From an uncultured Coriobacteriaceae bacterium (GTDB lineage Bacteria; Actinomycetota; Coriobacteriia; Coriobacteriales; UMGS124): 64,000 nt of DNA. The notes under the pieces are model-generated. The model saw nothing but the letters and a program-made list of their open reading frames with translations, was not told the DNA's origin and did not search any database. The stretch spans positions 610 through 64,609 of the forward strand of contig UQBS01000005.1 of NCBI GenBank assembly GCA_900539345.1, written 5' to 3'. This document shows positions 18,351 to 64,000 of this stretch, piece by piece (the first letter of the stretch is position 1; every line of letters begins with the position of its first letter). The translations under genes and the position numbers were made by a program.

Positions 18351-18459
18351 GGCGTGGCCTCCTCTATAAAGAAACGCTGCCGCCGGGCGCTCAAAGCCAT
18401 TCGCACCGGATGTGCCAAGGCCCGTGTGAGGCACGGCTGCAGCGTTTGTGCAAACGGTA

Positions 18460-18756
18460 TTACTGCTGGTCTTCGACGGGCTCAAAGATGAGCTCGCCAG
18501 ATGCCGGGTCAGAAAGCTCCACGGCGCCGGTCAGCACGTCGACGTACTGGTAGGACTGACGGGCGCGACGGCCGCGGCGCTCCTCCACCTCGACGATAAA
18601 GAGAGAGTCGTGGGTCTGCAGCAGCACGCCGTCACGCTCGACGACGCGCGAGCGGCCCATGTTGGCGCGCACCTTGAAGTGCGAGCCGGTCATATGAGAA
18701 AGCTTGTCGTGGATTTCCGCGATTTTGTTTGCGTGCTCTTCGAGTTCCATGTGCAT
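18460..18756 (-). CDS. veg: Veg-family small protein
   Basis: ...IAEIHDKLSHMTGSHFKVRANMGRSRVVERDGVLLQTHDSLFIVEVEE...QSYQYVDVLTGAVEL matches the Veg pattern. It sits between rsmA and ispE as in Bacillus. Start is ATG 18756 or 18750. Confidence 0.8.
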   Translation of the reverse strand: MHMELEEHANKIAEIHDKLSHMTGSHFKVRANMGRSRVVERDGVLLQTHDSLFIVEVEERRGRRARQSYQYVDVLTGAVELSDPASGELIFEPVEDQQ

Positions 18757-32128: not shown

Positions 32129-33223
32129 CTAGAGGCTCGTGGCCAGGCGGTCGAAGTCGAGCAGAATCTGGCTTGCATGCAGGCACATGAGCTCGACGGC
32201 ACCTGCCTCGAAGAGCTCGACGGCCTCGGCAACGGTGCGGGCGTCGGTGGTGGCACGCACGGCAACGCCGGGCTCGACAGTGGCACACACGAGGCGCACG
32301 TCCTCAGGCGTGGCGCAGCGCTCGGCTCCCGTGCAGGCGACGACGTAGTCGAGGTGCGCGGAAGAGATGGCGTCGACGGCCTGGCAGAGTACCTGCGGGG
32401 TCAGCTGGCCGCACTCGATGGCCACGCCCACCGCAAGAGCGCCGTCGCAGCAGTCGTCATCGTCATGACCGCAGCCGCAGCCACACGCGTCATCATCACA
32501 AGCGTGATCGTGATCATGGCCGCAGGCACAGTCATCGTCGTCGCAGGCGCAGTCGTGATCACGGCCTTGCTCGCATGTGCAGCCCTCGTCATCGCAACCG
32601 CAAGCGCACTCGTGGGTGTGCTTGCTGGCACCCGCGTCGTCGCGGTCGCAATCGTGGTCATGCCCACAGGCACAACCAGCCTCGTCGTCCTCGCAGGTAC
32701 AAGTCTCATCATCGCAGTCACAGCCGCAATCATGGTCATGGCCGCAGGCGCAAGCATCCTCGTCCTCGCACTCTTCGCCGTCGGCGCGGGCGGTGCGAAT
32801 CACGCTGAGCACGGGGTCCATGGCTTCGTCGAACTCGCCTTCGACAAGGGCGGCGGTGTTGGCGGCAAGGCACACCTCGCCCACACCCACCGAGGCGAGC
32901 ATGGCGCACTCAAAACACAGGGCGTCACCGAGCACGCGCCCGTAGGGCCAGCCCAGAAGCGCGGTGACGCTCACGGGAAGACCCTCCTCGCCAAACGACC
33001 AGGCAAGGCGCGGTGCATCCCCCACCCAGGTCGCAAGCGCCTCGTGCCCCGCTCCGGCAGCCTCAAACGCCTGCTGCAGCGTGGCACCCGGGCCCGCAAG
33101 GGGACTGGCGAGCAGCGGGATGAGCCTAGCCGCAAGCTCCTGGCCCAGACCCTCCAGGTCGACCTCTTCGCCTTCGCACAAGCAAGACGCCAAACGCCCC
33201 AGTGTCTCTTCTGCCTGCGACAT
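32129..33223 (-). CDS. DeoC/aldolase-fold homologue lacking the catalytic lysines, with a roughly 110-aa Cys/His/Asp-rich insert
   Basis: Alignment by eye to B. subtilis/E. coli DeoC: VTALLGWPYG ~ VIGFPLGA; EVCLAANT ~ EVDMVINI; GVAIECGQLT ~ KVIIETCLLT; HLDYVVACTG ~ GADFVKTSTG; GVAVRATTDARTVAEAVELFEAGA ~ IGVKASGGVRTKEDVDTMVEAGA. The insert (aa about 148-260) is ...CACGHDHDCGCDCDDETCTCEDDEAGCACGHDHDC...CACGHDHDHACDDDACGCGCGHDDDDCCDG. ATG 33223. Confidence 0.7.
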   Translation of the reverse strand: MSQAEETLGRLASCLCEGEEVDLEGLGQELAARLIPLLASPLAGPGATLQQAFEAAGAGHEALATWVGDAPRLAWSFGEEGLPVSVTALLGWPYGRVLGDALCFECAMLASVGVGEVCLAANTAALVEGEFDEAMDPVLSVIRTARADGEECEDEDACACGHDHDCGCDCDDETCTCEDDEAGCACGHDHDCDRDDAGASKHTHECACGCDDEGCTCEQGRDHDCACDDDDCACGHDHDHACDDDACGCGCGHDDDDCCDGALAVGVAIECGQLTPQVLCQAVDAISSAHLDYVVACTGAERCATPEDVRLVCATVEPGVAVRATTDARTVAEAVELFEAGAVELMCLHASQILLDFDRLATSL

Positions 33224-35021: not shown

Positions 35022-35151
35022 GCTGTCGCAGCCTTTCTTGTCATACGGCAACTCGGATGTAACACGGGACCACCGCGGCGCAGCAGGCAAGGGCGAGGCG
35101 CGCAATGCACAGCCTCTTGCCCGATGCGGCCGCAGCGGCCCCGCAGGTTTC

Positions 35152-36210
35152 TTATTCCGTGGCTCCCTGGTAGCCGTTGGGGTTCATGCTCTGCCACTTC
35201 CAGGAGTGGGCACACATGTCGTCGATGTCGTACTGGGCCTCCCAGCCCATGAGCTCCTTGGCCTTCGAGGCGTCACAGTAGGTCTCGGCGATATCCCCGT
35301 CACGACGCAGGCAAATCTCGTAGGGCAGTTCCTTGCCACAGGCACGCTCAAAGGCATGGATGACGTCAAGCACGCTGTAGCCGTGGCCCGTGCCCAGGTT
35401 GAACACATGCACGCCGTGCTTGCCGCGCATGTAGTTGAGGGCGGACACATGGCCACGTGCCAGGTCGACGACGTGGATGTAGTCGCGCACGCCGGTGCCG
35501 TCGGGCGTGGGGTAGTCGTCACCGAAGACGTTGATGTGGTCGAGCTGACCCACGGCGACCTTGGCCACGTAGGGCACGAGGTTGTTCGGGATGCCCTTGG
35601 GATCCTCGCCGATGAGACCGCTCTCGTGGGCGCCGATCGGGTTGAAGTAACGAAGGAGCATGACGTTCCAACGCTCGTCGGCCGTGTAAAGGTCGCGCAG
35701 CATCTGCTCGTTCATCGTCTTGGTACGACCGTAAGGGTTCGTGGCCGGCTTGAGCTCGGAATCCTCGCGCACGGGCACATGGTCGGGCTGGCCATAGACG
35801 GTGGCCGAAGAGGAGAACACGATGTCGTACACGCCGTGGTCACGAAGGGCGCGTGCGAGCTCGAGCGTGCCGCCCAGGTTGTTCTGGTAGTACTCGATGG
35901 GCTTGTGCACCGACTCGCCCACCGCCTTGTACGCGGCGAAGTGGATGGCGCCGCAGATGGGCTGCTCGTCGAAGATGCGGTCGAGAAGCGCCCCGTCCTT
36001 CACATCGCCCTGGTAGAAGGCACGAACCTTCTTGCCCGTGATGCGCTCGACGCGCTTGAGGGCGACCTCGCTGGCGTTGGACAGGTCGTCGATCACGACG
36101 ACGTCATAGCCAGCGTTGAGCAGCTCGACGCAGGTGTGGCTGCCGATGAAGCCGGCACCGCCCGTGACAAGGATGCAAGGCTTTTCGGACTCAGTTACCG
36201 TATCGGTCAT
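35152..36210 (-). CDS. galE: UDP-glucose 4-epimerase
   Basis: ILVTGGAGFIGSH, YGRTK (YxxxK), C-terminal ...WKWQSMNPNGY typical of GalE. ATG 36210 with a GAAAGGA RBS. Confidence 0.9.
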   Translation of the reverse strand: MTDTVTESEKPCILVTGGAGFIGSHTCVELLNAGYDVVVIDDLSNASEVALKRVERITGKKVRAFYQGDVKDGALLDRIFDEQPICGAIHFAAYKAVGESVHKPIEYYQNNLGGTLELARALRDHGVYDIVFSSSATVYGQPDHVPVREDSELKPATNPYGRTKTMNEQMLRDLYTADERWNVMLLRYFNPIGAHESGLIGEDPKGIPNNLVPYVAKVAVGQLDHINVFGDDYPTPDGTGVRDYIHVVDLARGHVSALNYMRGKHGVHVFNLGTGHGYSVLDVIHAFERACGKELPYEICLRRDGDIAETYCDASKAKELMGWEAQYDIDDMCAHSWKWQSMNPNGYQGATE

Positions 36211-56960: not shown

Positions 56961-57401
56961 CTACTCCTCCAAAAAATCCAGGGCGAGCAGGTCTTCCTCC
57001 GCACGCCGATAGGCAGCTCCGTCGCAGACCTCGAGATGGTCCCCGCCGCCCACGATGGCGACGTCCTTGTCGAGGCCCACGATTTGGCGCAACCTGCCCG
57101 GGATGCCGATGCGACCGGCCGAGTCAATGGCGGTCTCTTCGGTAAATGCGAGCAGGCGCGTGCGAAGCTGCACGTCGCGCGTGGAGCGCGGGTTGAAGCC
57201 CTCGCTGAAGAACGACTTGACCCATGCGTCGTAGGCCTCGGGCGCAAAGACGTAGACCGCCTTTTTGTCCAGAGACAGGACGCACTTCACAATCTCAGGC
57301 AGATAGCGGCGCGCCTTGGCGGGAAGCGAGACACGGCCCTTTGCGTCGAGCGTGTGCTCGGCAACGCCGGTAAAGCACGTATCTTGTGCCTCGATGTCCA
57401 T
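56961..57401 (-). CDS. mraZ: transcriptional regulator MraZ
   Basis: FTGVAEHTLDAKGRVSLPAK and a second SpoVT/AbrB-like repeat DSAGRIGIPGRL. 146 aa. Confidence 0.95.
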   Translation of the reverse strand: MDIEAQDTCFTGVAEHTLDAKGRVSLPAKARRYLPEIVKCVLSLDKKAVYVFAPEAYDAWVKSFFSEGFNPRSTRDVQLRTRLLAFTEETAIDSAGRIGIPGRLRQIVGLDKDVAIVGGGDHLEVCDGAAYRRAEEDLLALDFLEE

Positions 57402-57480
57402 GTGCGCCTCCTCTCAGCCTGATTTTGAGCCGAATCGTCCAACTTGACTGTCAGGATACACCATAGCGGAGTGCTTTTAT

Positions 57481-57531
57481 CCCACTCCATGCAACTTCAT
57501 AGCTCTTTTCCCCCACTTTATCCCACCCCAC
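57481..57531 (-). promoter_or_regulatory. cluster of GTGGG direct repeats upstream of mraZ (candidate MraZ operator)
   Basis: On the minus strand, GTGGG occurs at 57531-57527, 57526-57522, 57516-57512 and 57485-57481. GTGGGATAAA occurs twice. Two boxes are 10 bp apart. Confidence 0.45.
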
Positions 57532-57540
57532 ACACAGCAC

Positions 57541-57698
57541 AACGCAGCGGACGAGGTTCCGCATCACTCTAAAACGCGGGTTCTCGTCCGCAAGGCGCCG
57601 GGAGGCGATGCGTACTGGACGTACGTGAGCCTCCCGGCACGGAGCGCCCTTTGCGACGAGTCCCGTGGAGAACGCAGCGGACGAGGTTCCGCAACTCC
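57541..57698 (-). repeat. nested-palindrome repeat element, array A (one full 117-nt hairpin unit plus a half unit)
   Basis: Half arm at 57541-57562, linker ATCACTCTAAAAC, and a full hairpin at 57576-57692 (outer stem CTCGTCCGC/GCGGACGAG, inner stem CCGGGAGGC/GCCTCCCGG). Same family as 62031-62458. Ends ...GGTTCCGCAACTCC immediately before the xerD stop codon. Confidence 0.85.
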
Positions 57699-58652
57699 CT
57701 ACAGGTGGGCGCGGGGGTGGGCCGTAAAGTATTCCTCGCGTATATGTTCCCTATCCACATGTGTGTAAATCTGCGTCGTGGATATGTCGGCATGGCCGAG
57801 GATCTCTTGGAGAACGCGCAGGTCAGCGCCACCGGCAAGCATGTGGCTTGCAAAGGCGTGGCGAAGCACGTGGGGATGCAGGCCCGCGATGCCCACGGCG
57901 GCTCCGCAACGCTCCACCACATTGAAGATGCTCTGTCGGCTGATGCGCCCACCGCGAGCGTTGAGGAAGACCGCGCGGGGGTCTTGAGATGCCGCCGACG
58001 ACGTCAGATGCAAGAAAGGTCGGCCCTCATCGAGATACGTCCGCAGCGCAACAAGCGCGCTGCCCACGATGGGCACAAGCCTCTCCTTGCTGCCCTTGCC
58101 AAAGATACGCAGGAATCCGGCGTCGAGATAGCAGGCGGAAAGGTCGAGACCTGCAAGCTCGCTCACACGCAGGCCGCAGCCGTAGAGCACCTCGAGCATC
58201 GTCTTGTCGCGCATGCCGATGGGCGTTTCAGGAAACGGCTGGTCAAGCAACTCGAAAGCCTTCTCCACCGAGATGGTCTCAGGCAGGCGCTGGGGCTTGC
58301 GGGGGGCTTTCACTTCAGAAGTAGGAAGCTTTTCCGCAAGCCCGTCGACATAGAGGAACTTATGCAGGCCCTTGATGGCCGAGACAGCCCTCTGGATGCT
58401 CGTAGCGGCCTTGCCCTCGTCGTGTAGGTGGGCCTGGTACGCTTCCACAAGACCGCGTTCCACCTGGTCGGGAGCGTTGACATTGTGCTCGTCTGCCAGC
58501 CATGCGACCCAGGCGGTCAGGTCACGCCTGTAGGCATCCACCGTGTTCTTGGAAGAGCCCTTCTCAACGCGCAGGTAATCGATATAGTCGGCCAAGCCCG
58601 CCTCAAGGGCGGACCTGGCCTGATTCGCTCTGTCAGTCTTCGGCGCCGTCAC
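57699..58652 (-). CDS. xerD: tyrosine site-specific recombinase XerD (XerC/XerD family)
   Basis: N-terminal SAM-like domain, then ...RDKTMLEVLYGCGLRVSEL, HVLRHAFASHML, LGHADISTTQIYTHV (catalytic Tyr). The pyrG-xerD linkage is as in other Actinobacteria. GTG start. Confidence 0.85.
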   Translation of the reverse strand: MTAPKTDRANQARSALEAGLADYIDYLRVEKGSSKNTVDAYRRDLTAWVAWLADEHNVNAPDQVERGLVEAYQAHLHDEGKAATSIQRAVSAIKGLHKFLYVDGLAEKLPTSEVKAPRKPQRLPETISVEKAFELLDQPFPETPIGMRDKTMLEVLYGCGLRVSELAGLDLSACYLDAGFLRIFGKGSKERLVPIVGSALVALRTYLDEGRPFLHLTSSAASQDPRAVFLNARGGRISRQSIFNVVERCGAAVGIAGLHPHVLRHAFASHMLAGGADLRVLQEILGHADISTTQIYTHVDREHIREEYFTAHPRAHL

Positions 58653-58655
58653 AGC

Positions 58656-60287
58656 TTACCGCTCGTCGGCCCGAGCGCAGGAGGCCTTGATGAAGTCGCG
58701 GAACAAGGGGTGCGGCTTGGTGGGGCGGCTGCAAAACTCGGGGTGGAACTGGCCCGCGACAAACCAGGGATGGACGTCGCGAGGAAGCTCGATCATCTCG
58801 ACGAGGCGGCCGTCGGGCGAGGTGCCCGACACAACCAGGCCCGCCTCCACAAGCTGGGGGCGGAACTCGTTGTTCACCTCGAAACGATGGCGGTGACGCT
58901 CGGAGATATGCTCCTGGCCATAGGCCTCGGCACCCAGCGTACCAGCAACAACGTCGCAGGGATAGGCGCCCAGGCGCATGGTGCCGCCCATATCGACGAT
59001 GCCGGCCTGGTCGGGCATGAGGGCAATGACGGGATGCTGAGTCGTCTCGCTGAACTCGGCAGAGTTGGCATCAGCCCAGCCAAGCACGTCGCGAGCAAAC
59101 TCGGTTACGGCAACCTGAAGGCCCAGGCAGATGCCAAGGTAAGGAATCTTGTGCGTGCGGGCGTAACGGGCCGCGCAAATCTTGCCCTCGAATGCGCGCG
59201 AGCCAAAACCGCCAGGAACAAGGATGCCGTCGGCGCTGCCCAGAACTTCATCGGCATTGGCGTCGCAAAGTGTCTCGCCGTCGATGAGCTCGATGTCAAC
59301 GGCGCGGCCGTTGGCGACGCCAGCGTGATGCAGGGCCTCGATCACCGACAGGTATGCGTCGGGAAGCTGGGTGTACTTACCCACAAGCTTAATCTTGACC
59401 TCGCCGAGCGTGTCGCGGGTTGCCTCAGCGGCCGCCTTGGCATCGAGGAAGGCATCCCACTCGGCCATGTCGGACGTACGGGGGTCCAAGCCCAGGCGCT
59501 CACAGACCTTGAGGTCAAAGCCCTGGTCGGCAAGCATTTTGGGCACGTCGTAGATGGAGGGGCAGTCGCCGTTCACAAAGACCTCGTCGGGGTCGACGTC
59601 GCAGAACGACGCGATCTTGTGGCAGATCTTGTCGTCCACCTCGTGGTCGGCGCGCAGAACAATGATGTCAGGAGAGACACCCAGGCCACGCAGCTCTTTG
59701 ACAGAGTGCTGGGTAGGCTTGGTCTTCACCTCGTGCGATGCGGCGATGTAGGGAAGCAGCGACACGTGGATGTAGCAGACGTTCTCGTATCCCACATCCT
59801 TGCGGAACTGGCGGATGGCCTCGATGAAAGGCTGTGACTCGATGTCGCCGATGGTACCGCCAATCTCGGTGATGACGACGTCGGCGCCGGCCTTGTCGGC
59901 CACGCGGTGCATACGTGCCTTGATCTCGTTGGTGACATGGGGAATAACCTGCACCGTGCCGCCAAGGAAGTCGCCATGGCGCTCGCGGTTGATGAGGGTC
60001 TGATACACCGAACCCTGCGTGACGTTGGAGTCACGGTTGAGGCTCTCGTCGATGAAGCGCTCGTAGTGGCCCAGGTCGAGGTCACCCTCATGGCCGTCGT
60101 CGGTCACAAAGACCTCGCCATGCTGGAAGGGGCTCATCGTGCCGGGGTCGACGTTGAGATAGGGATCCATCTTCTGCATCGTGACCTTGTAGCCGCGGCT
60201 CTTGAGAAGGCGGCCCAAGGACGCTGCAGTAATGCCCTTACCCAGGGACGATACGACTCCGCCAGTCACGAATACATGTTTTGTCAT
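58656..60287 (-). CDS. pyrG: CTP synthase
   Basis: [46 protein letters not shown]. Confidence 0.97.
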
Positions 60288-60443
60288 AGGTGAGTTCCCG
60301 TTCCTCTCGCCATGCCGTACGCGGCGGCAGCCGTTAAGTTACGGGGCTTCATTTTAGCACGGCCATGTTTCAAGTCGTGTTCACCGCAGATATCAATAAA
60401 ATATTGAAAATATTGCCAATCCAAGGAGAGCACTGTGCCTCCC

Positions 60444-61898
60444 CTACTCGCCCTTGCCTTCGACCAAGTCGATAAGCTCCTGGTGAGAGTGGATGTCGAG
60501 CTTGGCATAGATATGCTTGACGTGGGCCTTGACTGTATTGCGCGAAACGCTTAGACGCTCTTCGATGTACTCGCGGTTGCGACCGCGTGCAAGCATCTCG
60601 AACACCTCGGCCTCGCGGGGCGTGAGCTGATAGGCGGCCGCCACCTGGGCGCAACGCTCAGCGAAAACCTCATCGGCAGAGACGTGGATCTCGATGTCGG
60701 GCTCGGGAGGCACAACGCCCTCGATCGTGACACGCAGCGAAAACCCGCGCAGGCCAAAGAGAATGTAGGCGACAAGAACCAGCAGCATGAAGGCGACAAA
60801 GAAAGCGAGCTGCTGGTGGCCGGCCGCAACCTCGATGCGGTTTGCCGTGGTGCCCAGAAGGGCGCCCAACGTCGTTGCCAGGCCTGACATGCCCTGACCC
60901 CATCCCACGATGGACAGGGCGGCCAGAGGGTTGCGGGCAGCGAGGGCGACAAGCGTGAAATTGAGGGCGATGCCGAACACGCAGGTACCAACCGTAAGAA
61001 GGCCGTTCGCCAGCATGACACTGCTCGAACCGCCCACCATGACAAGCAAAAAGCCCGCAGTGAGGGCAAGAAGCGACACGTTGACGATCTCGTCGCCGAT
61101 GAATCGTCCGCCCAGCGCGAGCGTCACCAACACGAGCACGACCGCGAACGCAAGGCCAAGGTTGCCAAAAGACGGCACGCCGGCCACCTCGCCGAAGCGC
61201 AGCGCAAAGCCGAACGCAACCTGTACGAGAATGATGCAGATATAGAGATTGCTCGTAAGCGGCACATACGAGGCAGGGCGCGTGACGGAAAGCTCGGCGG
61301 CGGCAGGACCGGCGGCGATCTCGTCGGCAAGGGCGCCGGCGCGGCGATGGGCGCACACCAGGCACACGGGGATGAGAACCACAAGCAACACGGCAGAAAC
61401 CTGTTGAGGAAGAGCGACGCGCACAAGCAGGTCGAACAGCTGCGCAAACACGGCACCCATCGTAATGGCGACGACTGCCTGGGGCGCAGGCAGCGACACA
61501 GCAGCCAGGTTCGAACTGATGGAGGTCCATCCGCGGCTTGTCACAAGCAGACATGCGCCCGGCACCAGCAGAGCAGGGACACGCAAGCCCAGTCCCGCAA
61601 GCACGCCAACGACGCCAAGCGCCCAGATGACCAACATCGAGAAAAAGAGGCCCCTGCCGCTCAAAAGCGCAGGCCAGACAAGCGAGATAAGGCCGAGCGC
61701 AATGGAGACGAGCGCGCTGCACGTGATCGAGATATCGCGCGCGTAGGTAAACACGCCATCGAACAGGGGAAAGAGCGACCGGTTCATGAGCTGCACGGTA
61801 AGGCCCGCCATGCCCATCGCGCAACAGACAAGCCAGAACTCGCGACTGGCAAACGTCACCCGGCAAAACTCGCGCACCTGTCGTAGTGCCTGTGCCAC
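60444..61898 (-). CDS. membrane-anchored LuxR-family transcriptional regulator (polytopic N-terminal domain plus C-terminal HTH)
   Basis: About 400 aa with roughly 10-12 hydrophobic helices, then LTPREAEVFEMLARGRNREYIEERLSVSRNTVKAHVKHIYAKLDIHSHQEL (LuxR/GerE HTH). GTG start after AAGGGGG. Confidence 0.85.
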   Translation of the reverse strand: MAQALRQVREFCRVTFASREFWLVCCAMGMAGLTVQLMNRSLFPLFDGVFTYARDISITCSALVSIALGLISLVWPALLSGRGLFFSMLVIWALGVVGVLAGLGLRVPALLVPGACLLVTSRGWTSISSNLAAVSLPAPQAVVAITMGAVFAQLFDLLVRVALPQQVSAVLLVVLIPVCLVCAHRRAGALADEIAAGPAAAELSVTRPASYVPLTSNLYICIILVQVAFGFALRFGEVAGVPSFGNLGLAFAVVLVLVTLALGGRFIGDEIVNVSLLALTAGFLLVMVGGSSSVMLANGLLTVGTCVFGIALNFTLVALAARNPLAALSIVGWGQGMSGLATTLGALLGTTANRIEVAAGHQQLAFFVAFMLLVLVAYILFGLRGFSLRVTIEGVVPPEPDIEIHVSADEVFAERCAQVAAAYQLTPREAEVFEMLARGRNREYIEERLSVSRNTVKAHVKHIYAKLDIHSHQELIDLVEGKGE

Positions 61899-62030
61899 CG
61901 TCCCGCCCCCTTCGCGCGCAAACCGCTCTTACACCCGCGATTCTACACGCGAAAGGGGCAGCCCTCAGCCCATGGCCGAAGACTGCCCCTCAAACACTCA
62001 AACTACCCTCTAACCCCACAGCCGGGGCCC

Positions 62031-62458
62031 ACGCACAGCGCCGCACGCGAGGTTCCGCAACTCCTCAAAAGCGGGTTCTCGTCCGCAAGGCGTCGGGAGG
62101 CGATGCGTACTAGGTCTGGAGAACGCAGCAGACGAGGTTCCGCATCCCTCTAAAAGCGGGTTCTGATGCGCAAGGCGCGCGATGCCGACGTGCGCGGTGC
62201 GGGCCTTTGGCCTACTGGAGTACTCTAGGCCCTGCGGAACGCAGCGCATCAGGTCCGCATCCCACTAAAACGCAGGTTCTCACGCGCAAGGCGCGCGGAG
62301 TCGATGTGTACTGGAGTACATGAGACTCCGCGGAACGCGGCGCGTGAGGTTCCGCAGCTCCTCAAAAAGCGGGTTCTGATGCGCAAGGCGCGCAGGGCCG
62401 ACGTGTACTGGAGTACTCTAGGCCCTGCGGAACGCAGCGCATCAGGTTCCGCAACTCC
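62031..62458 (-). repeat. nested-palindrome repeat element, array B (four tandem hairpin units plus a half unit)
   Basis: Hairpins at 62071-62143, 62156-62258, 62271-62355 and 62369-62452, separated by 12-13-nt linkers (ATCCCTCTAAAA, ATCCCACTAAAA, AGCTCCTCAAAAA). On the minus strand each hairpin is followed by TTTT(T). Ends ...GGTTCCGCAACTCC immediately before the reductase stop codon. Confidence 0.9.
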
Positions 62459-64000
62459 CTAGTTGGCGAACTCCTGGCCAAGGATGTAGGCCTCGGTGGT
62501 AGTACGCCCGCACGCAAGGCCGGTGAACAGGTTGGGGTAGCTCACGCAGAAGAAGCCGCCCGAGCAGTCACCGATGGCGTAGAGGCCCTCGATGGGGTTG
62601 TTGTCCTGGTCGAGAACCTGCATGTGCGTGTTGATGAGCAGGCCGTCGAACGTGGCGAGGTGCCAGGCGCCGGTGCGCACGCCATAGAAAGGCGGCGTGT
62701 CGAGCTTCGTGAGGCGGTAGGCCTCCTTGTAGTAGTCGGGGTCGGCGCCCTCGTCGCAGTAGCCGTTGTACTTCTCAACCGTGGCCGCAAGGTTCTCAGC
62801 GGGGATGTTGAGCTTCTCGGCAAGCTCCTCGATGGTGTCGGCCTGCTGGATGTAGCCGTCCTCGATAAGCTTGGCGTTCATGTTGTTCCACACCACGTCA
62901 AACGGGATGTTGTTCTGGGCACCGTTGTCGAAGGGGAACAGACGACAGCAACCGACCTCATTGAGCTGCTCAGCCTTGGCCTTGGCGTCGGAGTCCCAGA
63001 TGTCGCAGTAGGTGTGGTAAGGCTGGCTCCACGTGGAGTGCAGCATGTAGTCGTAGGGACCGCTCTCGTTGCAGAAGCGCTCGCCGTTGAGGTTGACCTT
63101 GAGGAAGGGCTGCTCGCCGAACCAGAACCAACGGCCCACGACGCCATTGCCGGCAACCTCGTCGGGCATGACGCAGCAGCGGTTGAACAGGATCGAGGTG
63201 CCAATCGGGTCCTTGCGGGCACCGAGCCACATACCAGCCTTGATGCCGGAGCCGTCATCGGTGGAACCAGAGGTGCACAGGATGCGACCGTCGACGATCT
63301 CGGGCTGCAGGGCGCACATCATCTCGGAGTTCGTGGAGTAACCACCCGTGGCAAGTACGACGCCCTTGGAAGCATTGATGCGCACGTAGTGGCCATCGGT
63401 GGTGTCCTGGGCGATAGCGCCGGTCACGCGGCCGGACTCGTCCTGCTCGAGCTTGACCAGGGGGCAGCTCCAGCGCACCTCGGCACCGGCGTCGATGGCA
63501 GCCTGGCGCATGACCTTGGTGTAGGAATCGTCGTCGCCAGCGGCCTCGGTCTTCTGGGGGCTGTGGCCCGTGGCGTAGGCGCGGTCGCGACCCTCGCCGT
63601 CCTGGTTGCCGATGCCACCCTCGAACTCCATGACGAACTTGCCGGTAGCCTCGATGGTCTCGGTGATCCAGTCGATGACCTCGCCGGAGCGCTGAGCCCA
63701 CATCTTGATGAGGTCATAGTTGCAGAAGCCGTTGGCGTAGCGGACGATGTCCTCGACGGCGTCCTTCTCCTCAATCTTGAACTCGGGGAACTCCTCGAAG
63801 GAGGCCAGCTGGAGCTTGGAGTTCATGGCGCCGATGTCCTCGCGCATCTGCTGGCAGGTCTCCTCGGCGTCACGCTCGATGACGAGGGTCTTGCTGCCGT
63901 TCTGTGCGCAGGAAAGCGCGCAGGGCACACCGCCGGTGTTGAAGCCGCAGACAAGAACCTCGGTCTCGAGGGTCTCGGTGATGTCGGCCTCGGCAACCTC
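62459..64000 (-). CDS. FAD-dependent oxidoreductase of the fumarate-reductase/urocanate-reductase flavoprotein family (5' end outside the window)
   Basis: The reading frame stays open to nt 64000 (…EVLVCGFNTGGVPCALSCAQNGSKTLVIE = dinucleotide-binding start). VLATGGYSTNSEMM. C-terminal GLYAIGDCSGGFF, typical of FAD_binding_2 reductases. Confidence 0.85.
   Translation of the reverse strand, partial: EVAEADITETLETEVLVCGFNTGGVPCALSCAQNGSKTLVIERDAEETCQQMREDIGAMNSKLQLASFEEFPEFKIEEKDAVEDIVRYANGFCNYDLIKMWAQRSGEVIDWITETIEATGKFVMEFEGGIGNQDGEGRDRAYATGHSPQKTEAAGDDDSYTKVMRQAAIDAGAEVRWSCPLVKLEQDESGRVTGAIAQDTTDGHYVRINASKGVVLATGGYSTNSEMMCALQPEIVDGRILCTSGSTDDGSGIKAGMWLGARKDPIGTSILFNRCCVMPDEVAGNGVVGRWFWFGEQPFLKVNLNGERFCNESGPYDYMLHSTWSQPYHTYCDIWDSDAKAKAEQLNEVGCCRLFPFDNGAQNNIPFDVVWNNMNAKLIEDGYIQQADTIEELAEKLNIPAENLAATVEKYNGYCDEGADPDYYKEAYRLTKLDTPPFYGVRTGAWHLATFDGLLINTHMQVLDQDNNPIEGLYAIGDCSGGFFCVSYPNLFTGLACGRTTTEAYILGQEFAN

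Follow-up and report, generated by a model that had tools for sequence, protein, structure and literature searches.

A family of hairpin repeats associated with stop codons in a gut lineage of Coriobacteriia

Gene ends and repeat arrays in the window

The window analysed here is a 64,000-nucleotide stretch of contig UQBS01000005.1 (assembly GCA_900539345.1, positions 610 to 64,609) from an uncultured Coriobacteriaceae bacterium, in which two minus-strand genes, encoding an XerD-type tyrosine recombinase and a reductase, are each followed at the stop codon by an array of palindromic repeat units. The genes are unrelated by Pfam (Phage_integrase/XerD-type and FAD_binding_2 respectively); named XerD homologues exist in Coriobacteriia, and the orthologue of the reductase at locus L124 (fetched loci are cited by L number) is 565 aa long. 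The features of the two gene ends are as follows.

57699..58652, minus strand: xerD-type tyrosine recombinase gene, stop TAG at 57699-57701 (open reading frame list; Pfam Phage_integrase and Phage_int_SAM_1)
57693..57701, minus strand: stop TAG and 6-nt purine-rich leader GGAGTT, the 5' end of the repeat homology zone (sequence)
57576..57692, minus strand: full xerD unit, 117 nt including an optional insert, in the order GCGGAACCT-CGTCCGC-TGCGTTC-insert-CCGGGAGGC-apical GTAC hairpin-GCCTCCCGG-CGCCTT-GCGGACG-AGAACCCGC (covariance model match of 57.6 bits at 57568-57678; covariation across 49 units)
57638..57669, minus strand: optional 32-nt branch module TCCACGGGACTCGTCGCAAAGGGCGCTCCGTG in the xerD unit (absent from the L120/L124 alleles; present in L158, L161 and L162)
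57563..57575, minus strand: T run and linker GTTTTAGAGTGAT (sequence)
57541..57562, minus strand: terminal half unit GCGGAACCTCGTCCGCTGCGTT, end of the xerD array (sequence)
62459..>64000, minus strand: FAD_binding_2 reductase gene, running off the window, stop TAG at 62459-62461 (open reading frame list; Pfam)
62037..62461, minus strand: whole reductase array (Tandem Repeats Finder period of 97; covariance model matches of 113, 98, 65 and 54 bits)
62453-62461, minus strand: stop and leader of the reductase array
62369-62452, minus strand: reductase array unit 1
62272-62355, minus strand: reductase array unit 2
62156-62258, minus strand: reductase array unit 3, with a chimeric inner stem and a 20-nt apical insert
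62071-62143, minus strand: reductase array unit 4, internally deleted
62356-62368, 62259-62271, 62144-62155 and 62059-62070, minus strand: reductase array linkers
62037-62058, minus strand: reductase array half unit

Read directly on the gene strand, the coding end of xerD is ...CACCTG TAG and that of the reductase ...GCCAAC TAG, and in both cases the TAG is followed by GGAGTTGCGGAACC (57685-57698 and 62445-62458); the identical 17-nt junction described in an earlier note, made from the letters of this stretch, is therefore present at both genes. The exact 17-mer, TAGGGAGTTGCGGAACC, occurs at only these two sites in the window, and allowing up to three mismatches adds four inter-unit linkers, giving six matches where 0.16 are expected and none of 100 shuffles does as well. 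The linker cited in that note for its likeness to the shared string, TGAGGAGTTGCGGAACC, lies at 62051-62067. Among 167 fetched loci the exact 17-mer recurs only at the xerD locus of same-species strains; it is strain-specific and no property of the repeats at large, and it is the repeat family that generalises.

A repeat unit is approximately 97 nt long and consists of a purine-rich leader (TAR followed by RRKGWT), a compound hairpin of 84 nt (73-117 nt when deletions or inserts are counted) and a run of 3-5 T. On the gene strand the leader is followed by GCGGAACCT, by two variable arms (7 nt, then 9 nt) separated by (T/C)GCGTTC, and by the GTAC-N5-GTAC apical hairpin; then come the complements of the two arms in reverse order, with CGCCTT between them, and finally AGAACCCGC and the T run. 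Four stems are stacked in this structure: an outer GCGG/CCGC stem whose AAC/AAC internal loop is invariant, then a variable stem of 7 bp, a GCG/CGC stem bordered by bulges, and a second variable stem, of 9 bp. Arrays contain one to five units arranged head to tail with periods of 97, 85, 116 and 130 nt, and nearly all of them end not at a unit boundary but in a terminal half unit (GCGGAACCT and the 7-nt arm, with or without TGCGTT). Where the arm of the half unit is of the same type as that of the preceding unit, pairing between the two over the linker can sequester the T run, as seen in the fold of the xerD array of the window.

Optional modules of two kinds turn up within units at different loci (57638-57669 and 62156-62258 in the window; L144, L158, L161, L162 and L120:2701-2825), one being the 32-nt branch hairpin TCCACGGGACTCGTCGCAAAGGGCGCTCCGTG, placed after TGCGTTC, and the other the 20-nt apical-loop insert GGCCAAAGGCCCGCACCGCG. 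The 7-nt arm GATGCGC contains an ATG that opens a 25-codon frame closed by the TGA of the linker (62369-62443, in the first reductase unit); this is probably a chance occurrence, since the other stem types have no ATG.

Survey of independent gene ends

The generality of the arrangement was assessed with a survey blind to the junction, in which a metagenome scan with a 28-base pattern lying wholly inside the hairpin returned 31 loci. With a 14-base pattern, which proved too unspecific, genome contigs yielded 119 loci, most of them random, the true copies being L012 and L091 only. XerD look-ups supplied further strains and relatives, arrays were delimited with an nhmmer profile and a covariance model, and orthologous loci were collapsed to leave 27 independent gene ends. 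At 25 of these the stop of a co-oriented gene-like open reading frame (ORF) falls 2-14 nt ahead of the first G of GCGGAACC, the remaining two loci being uncertain, and the commonest offset between stop and hairpin is -9, found at 10 loci. The upstream ORFs are 95-1172 codons long with GC3>GC1>GC2, and no array is reversed relative to its upstream gene among the loci assessed. At L156 and L159, two adjacent arrays lie in opposite orientations, each behind its own gene, so that array polarity is tied to the gene and not to the direction of replication.

The genes preceding the arrays are unrelated to one another by Pfam, and include those for XerD, GyrB, Hsp20, a NusG_II-domain protein, a 2-hydroxyacid dehydrogenase, an ABC ATPase, two 4Fe-4S proteins, DUF47, PTPS and ArsR proteins, and six FAD_binding_2 reductases. 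Docking at gene ends, as the earlier note had put it, is therefore a robust property of the family, given the 25 of 27 loci, the uniform orientation and the diversity of upstream genes. A tabulation of stop distances of the kind that note had called for, here over the 27 loci, bears out the stop-adjacent position and gives no support to a preference for TAG, as described below.

The downstream ends of the arrays were considered as a source of TAA stops for convergent genes, and this idea was rejected: the antisense ORFs that stop 3 nt inside the array 3' end have no Pfam matches and look spurious, and all of them stop there because the complement of TTTTA terminates any antisense ORF. Real convergent genes ending within 10 nt of an array number only two (encoding a MerR regulator and an aminotransferase).

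The two genome loci L012 and L091 (CAVEWV01) are on element-bearing contigs of 63-66% GC that are titled 'Acutalibacteraceae bacterium' (Firmicutes). Spread across phyla was nevertheless rejected, as all named homologues of the ApbE encoded at these loci are from Coriobacteriia, and the contigs are likely to be mislabelled or to belong to a mixed bin. A scan of viral contigs with the element gave no match. Searches of Rfam gave no match at E<=1 in 57000-63000, the whole window yielding one tRNA only at gathering score, and the literature on repeats or terminators of Eggerthella and the Eggerthellaceae produced nothing relevant. The repeat family is previously undescribed and is confined to a gut lineage of Coriobacteriia; it is not a new principle.

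Origin of the stop codon

The earlier note had offered two alternatives for the close junction, namely that the element inserts at a TAG or CTAG target or that it supplies the stop codon itself, and comparison of alleles favours the second. Internal linkers hold TAG, TAA or TGA in the same alignment column as the gene stop, followed by the same type of leader (RRKGWT). Coding flanks are identical between strains up to the last sense codon, while the stop and the 6-nt leader change together with the element. At the reductase gene, CAAC is followed by TAGGGAGTT, TAAAGAGCT, TAAAGAGTT or TAGTTGGTT in different strains, and the xerD alleles of various strains and species carry TAGGGAGTT, TAGGAGGTC, TAGCAAGTT or TAAGTTGTT, as well as TGAGGC. 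In three genes, those of L162 (XerD, ...HYRM*), L146/L150 (...GEVRM*) and L012, the ORF runs through the leader into the element, and the stop TAG is formed by the TA of the leader and the first G of GCGG. The XerD tails differ too, with 1-3 residues (L, M, LK or YRM) following the conserved HPRAH where the element is present and 3-7 (SGA, VKV, VKP, RSGA or VRSPGNV) in five element-free relatives. Because stop and leader vary with the element while the flank is constant, and because three genes read into the element, these alignments indicate that the stop codon normally lies inside the 5' homology zone of the repeat, and that the element usually supplies or replaces the stop.

Two observations qualify this picture. 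GyrB proteins commonly end in ...YLDI. The GyrB encoded upstream of one array retains this end and the element TAG follows directly, which speaks against simple truncation and shows that docking can be exact to the codon. In addition, a T run followed by purines gives T-R-R triplets unaided, and part of the resemblance between linker and junction is therefore a by-product of composition.

The alternative of a TAG or CTAG insertion target fared less well. Background stops, counted for ORFs with a coding-like GC profile, number 22 TAG, 21 TAA and 7 TGA in the window and 147, 100 and 41 over all loci, so that TAG makes up 51% of 288 stops; the element-adjacent stops (16 TAG, 6 TAA and 3 TGA; 64% TAG, n=25) are not significantly different. 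The base before TAG varies among junctions, CTAG, TTAG and GTAG all occurring, and we reject a preference for such a target. Of 42 distinct first junctions, 20 have a stop triplet (TAG or TAA) at offset -9, 6 nt from the stem, and in 15 of them it is TAG. Stop usage is itself unusual for a genome of 62.6% GC, with TAG and TAA dominating and TGA rare.

These figures also bear on a further explanation, which we consider improbable, that the repeat is a non-autonomous element moved next to a TAG or TAR target by a single-strand (HUH) transposase of the IS200/IS605 insertion sequence type or of the RAYT (repetitive extragenic palindrome-associated tyrosine transposase) type. An imperfect hairpin, conserved mismatches and an unpaired 5' tag containing TAG would be in keeping with such an origin, as in the GTAG-REPs (PMC3733652). 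TAG is however not above background and TAA and TGA also occur, the tag stands 6 nt from the stem, often without a preceding G, and the offset of the stop varies from -2 to -14. Furthermore, the units are arranged head to tail and not as inverted pairs, and the adjacent opposite arrays that each follow their own gene fit transcription polarity, whereas they do not fit replication polarity.

Conservation and folding of the hairpin

The hairpin was examined in an alignment of 49 distinct units, drawn from the window and from 40 further loci, with pairs counted on the structure as read from the sequence. Standard pairs account for 96.4% of 1467 cells, and changes on both sides are found in 16 of the 30 pairs (216 cells). 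The covariation score of 0.374 compares with 0.146 in shuffles, none of 500 of which reaches it, and pairing falls to only 24-52% in a control in which the partner was slid by 1-3 columns. The hairpin is under selection and is kept by compensatory change.

The variable stems occur as a few discrete types (CGTCCGC, GATGCGC, CACGCGC, GGCCTGC, CGGCCGC and CGCCGGC). Invariant or nearly so are the AAC/AAC loop, a single U bulge, the UUC and CUU bulges, the GTAC...GTAC apex and two T's in columns 99-100 of the alignment; the GAACC motifs are invariant, and the paired apex positions are likewise invariant in sequence and show no covariation. The folding energy of single units on the sense strand is -49 to -50 kcal/mol (z about -5), the first units of arrays being slightly more stable than the last (a weak trend, p=0.06), and folding of the antisense strand is equal or slightly better. 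Polarity resides in the T run 3' of the hairpin and in the purine-rich leader, which is able to pair with the T run via G-U pairs; these two features make sense only on the sense strand.

Array evolution and mobility

Units at unrelated loci reach 98.8% identity against a family mean of 78%. The family is patchily distributed, in that two relatives with XerD 80% and 85% identical carry the element while five related xerD loci, with XerD 71-83% identical, and the surrounding 47 kb are without it. These comparisons suggest that the family spread historically to many unrelated gene ends in a narrow clade, and to this extent the mobility proposed in the earlier note is upheld.

Of current movement there was no sign in the loci compared. 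An empty-site comparison found no empty site among close relatives, every orthologous locus compared being occupied and only the distant xerD loci (71-83%) being without the element, and the differences between strains are those of a variable-number tandem repeat (VNTR). Nor was any target-site duplication found, as the longest word shared between the upstream flank and the 70 nt downstream averages 4.10 nt, against 4.10 nt in mismatched controls, with none of 7 nt or more; a MITE (miniature inverted-repeat transposable element) with terminal inverted repeats and a target-site duplication is rejected on the same figures. Searches by tblastn with IS200 TnpA and Escherichia coli RAYT gave nothing below E=0.08 in the window and approximately 40 element-bearing loci (~430 kb), a weak test given the query sequences used. 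The IS200/IS605 or RAYT mechanism put forward previously is not borne out by a matching ORF in these sequences, which weighs lightly against the HUH transposase explanation; on the other side, absence of a target duplication is what this class of element predicts, and near-identical units do occur at unrelated loci.

The arrays evolve far faster than their flanks, by loss and gain of units and by recombination between units in the manner of a VNTR. In same-species strains the flanks are 98-99.7% identical and the element only 67-87%. Three same-species xerD alleles look like different units retained from a three-unit array, of the kind still present in L157, L161 and L162; chimeric units with mismatched arms mark inter-unit recombination, and unit swaps are visible.

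Such variability invites the view that the repeat is selfish or neutral and has no host function, surviving only where it is harmless, in the stretch from a stop codon to the native terminator or the following promoter, with orientation and tight position reflecting purifying selection and loss of spacer DNA. Copy number does vary freely between strains, some units are decayed or chimeric (reductase units 3 and 4 of the window), intact canonical terminators lie directly downstream of at least seven arrays, and the same argument has been made for SPRITE, BOX and RUP (PMC3049150). We nonetheless think it rather unlikely. A neutral haven would permit both orientations, whereas none of the loci assessed departs from the co-directional arrangement; compensatory change maintains the hairpin; the same gene ends still carry arrays where the flanks are only 75-80% identical; and the exact -9 peak and the read-in ORFs are tighter than a 'safe spacer' predicts.

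Predicted function

Termination of transcription, or a barrier at the mRNA 3' end, is predicted to be the most likely function of the arrays, and is plausible in that it fits their polarity, the high stability of the hairpin and the conservation of the T run; tandem copies could add up weak terminators. The explanation that we hold to be probable as a whole, if by no means secure, is of a lineage-restricted, non-coding repeat family situated at stop codons, with a terminator or 3'-end role and a past spread of copies. The array would be transcribed as the start of the 3' untranslated region (UTR), each unit folding into a hairpin of about -50 kcal/mol ahead of a short U tract and acting as a weak to moderate intrinsic terminator, or as a barrier protecting the mRNA 3' end, with stacked units adding strength. 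With a start 6 nt past the stop, the hairpin would fall inside the footprint of the terminating ribosome. Past spread may have occurred by a copy mechanism that landed within a few nucleotides of stop codons, and present maintenance would be mainly by gene conversion and unequal crossing-over among copies.

Several observations weigh against a terminator role. Of the attributes of an intrinsic terminator the GC-rich hairpin is present, but the T run is short (3-5 T against a canonical U-rich tract of 7-9 nt) and a consensus terminator scan calls no unit. Canonical terminators, with short hairpins and long T runs, occur in this organism as well (one follows the tRNA pair in L120), and at least seven independent arrays (L136/L155/L160, L137, L138, L140, L141, L142 and L153) have an intact canonical terminator, with a short GC hairpin and at least five T, 50-90 nt downstream. 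Such arrays thus have the stop codon on one side and the native terminator on the other, and either transcription reads through them or insertion there is recent. Mismatches in the units comprise 30 A-C and 18 G-U on the sense strand, with no clear strand preference, and we rejected mismatch types as an indicator of the functional strand since these counts are indecisive. Finally, the invariant unpaired motifs and the GTAC apex are superfluous for a plain terminator and suggest a specific partner or a role at the DNA level; the authors of RNIE proposed a dedicated binding factor for the TRIT repeats (PMC3152330).

At the DNA level, the palindrome with its GTAC-N5-GTAC centre and GAACC motifs might bind a protein or extrude as a cruciform, and the partners might be nucleoid-associated proteins, gyrase or a recombinase, as for some repetitive extragenic palindromes (REP) and bacterial interspersed mosaic elements (BIME), with effects on supercoiling, domain boundaries or recombination. 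The apex pairs that are invariant without covariation, the invariant GAACC motifs, the nearly equal folding of both strands and the lack of a clear strand bias in mismatch types are all in accord with such a site. We regard it as very unlikely all the same, because array orientation is strictly coupled to the upstream gene and the T run and purine leader are one-sided, polar features of which a symmetric DNA site would have no need.

A more elaborate scheme, speculative and with little likelihood in our estimation, is one of active docking at stop codons, in which a copying mechanism recognises T-A-R and the purine-rich, Shine-Dalgarno-like leader and pastes units there, a dedicated protein, encoded by the host or by the element, reads the AAC/AAC loop and the GTAC-N5-GTAC apex, and termination or 3'-UTR processing is factor-dependent and tuned by the number of units. 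Another candidate, a terminator/antiterminator switch in which the 3' arm of one unit pairs with the 5' arm of the next (seen in the fold of the xerD array of the window), was rejected, as it requires neighbouring units to be of one stem type and in most arrays they are not.

Should the RNA-level reading be right, many genes of a common gut lineage, among them xerD immediately upstream of the cell-division cluster, gyrB and many of those for flavin reductases, share a 3' module of variable copy number that would set read-through and mRNA stability differently in different strains. The hypervariability of the arrays suggests possible use as strain-typing markers in the manner of MIRU-VNTR. In annotation, gene callers would do well to expect that a repeat encodes the stop and the final codons of such genes.

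Neighbouring genes and other repeats

The genes downstream of the two arrays in the window are as follows.

56961..57401, minus strand: mraZ, first gene of the dcw (division and cell wall) cluster, downstream of the xerD array (Pfam MraZ; synteny kept in all related loci)
60444..61898, minus strand: gene for a LuxR-type (GerE) regulator, downstream of the reductase array (Pfam)

Between the xerD array and mraZ, GTGGGAT/GTGGGGG boxes recur at 57430-57535 and are conserved in all related loci, including those that are free of the element. We take these boxes to resemble MraZ operator repeats. The reductase, its array and the LuxR-type regulator form a strain-variable island (60444-64000 in the window; L120:7480-8370; L124:4569-8209; delimited with the L120/L124 alignment) that is absent from nine of ten other strains with identical XerD, which have two tRNA genes, a canonical terminator and a 152-aa ORF in its place.

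Further long hairpins are found in the window at the stop codons of minus-strand genes, at 35056-35156 and 18363-18463 (both minus strand), and score weakly with the model (33.8 and 17.8 bits); their appearance is that of long terminator hairpins of a generic sort and not of family members. A variant member at L120:2701-2825 (49 bits) lies just after groEL (stop 2703-2705) and starts 7 nt past the stop; it has the same inner architecture (CGCGTTC...CGCCTT) with a different outer stem and no T run, and a canonical terminator comes next. Direct repeats of a different kind, in five copies approximately 51 nt apart and 64-100% identical, are present at 32445-32764 of the window in apparent coding sequence, and are unrelated to the hairpin family.

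Comparison with known repeat families

The family combines traits of the GTAG-REP, TRIT, SPRITE and MIRU repeats, yet lacks the defining properties of REPs, MITEs, integron attC sites and MIRUs. The GTAG-REPs (Di Nocera et al., 2013; PMC3733652) are 20-40 bp palindromes with stems of 6-13 bp and an unpaired terminal tag that contains TAG, stands at the stem or at most 2 nt from it, and often gives flanking ORFs their stop; most are inverted dimers and head-to-tail copies are rare. The Coriobacteriia repeats are similarly dispersed extragenic palindromes with an unpaired TAG-containing tag, sit chiefly behind genes, where the adjacent ORFs are co-directional or convergent, and fall into sub-families with alternative complementary stem residues; as with REPs generally, there are many extragenic copies downstream of genes, at no fewer than 27 independent loci. 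They differ in that the hairpin is of 84 nt with four stacked stems and not a short palindrome of 20-40 bp, the TAG is 6 nt from the stem and only sometimes preceded by G in place of GTAG/CGTC at the stem itself, and the units run strictly head to tail and carry a T run.

The pneumococcal SPRITE repeats (2011; PMC3049150) are dispersed, terminator-like and approximately 105 nt long, with no transposase, target-site duplication or empty site identified, and the present family resembles them in being dispersed, in a length of roughly 100 nt and in the lack of these three, as well as in having a long duplex and a U-rich tract, enrichment near the 3' ends of coding sequences, and past spread with slow present movement. 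SPRITE, however, is AT-rich, with a single 18-bp duplex and a long T tract, and belongs to another phylum, and a start at the stop codon and an arrangement in arrays are not reported for it.

MIRUs (mycobacterial interspersed repetitive units; Supply et al., 1997, as summarised in PMC3184786) are head-to-tail units of 40-100 bp whose array ends overlap adjacent genes, and according to that summary they form variable-number intergenic arrays at approximately 40-50 loci, VNTR-like as are those described here, which likewise overlap gene ends. The same summary has MIRUs carrying small ORFs that link neighbouring cistrons, whereas the present unit is a covarying hairpin with a T run. A coding repeat of the MIRU type was rejected, since the array periods are not multiples of 3 and most linkers carry TAG, TAA or TGA. 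An integron attC site was also rejected, since AAC is on the same strand in both arms (GCGGAACC ... AGAACCCGC) and forms an AAC/AAC mismatch, not AAC/GTT, where R''(RYYYAAC)/R'(GTTRRRY) boxes are required, and since the units adjoin with no ORF between them.

The TRIT ('Tuberculosis Rho-independent terminator') repeat of Mycobacterium (Gardner et al., 2011; PMC3152330) is a conserved hairpin with 147 copies clustered tightly near -8 of stop codons. Like it, the present family is actinobacterial, occupies a narrow position relative to the stop that overlaps the end of the coding sequence, and is suspected of having a binding factor; unlike it, by description, the elements are polar, arrayed and found in Coriobacteriia, TRIT being largely bidirectional, single-copy at each site and restricted to Mycobacterium. 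The family thus adds a Coriobacteriia example to the few repeat families that are locked to stop codons, GTAG-REP and TRIT among them, and could help to explain how such docking arises.

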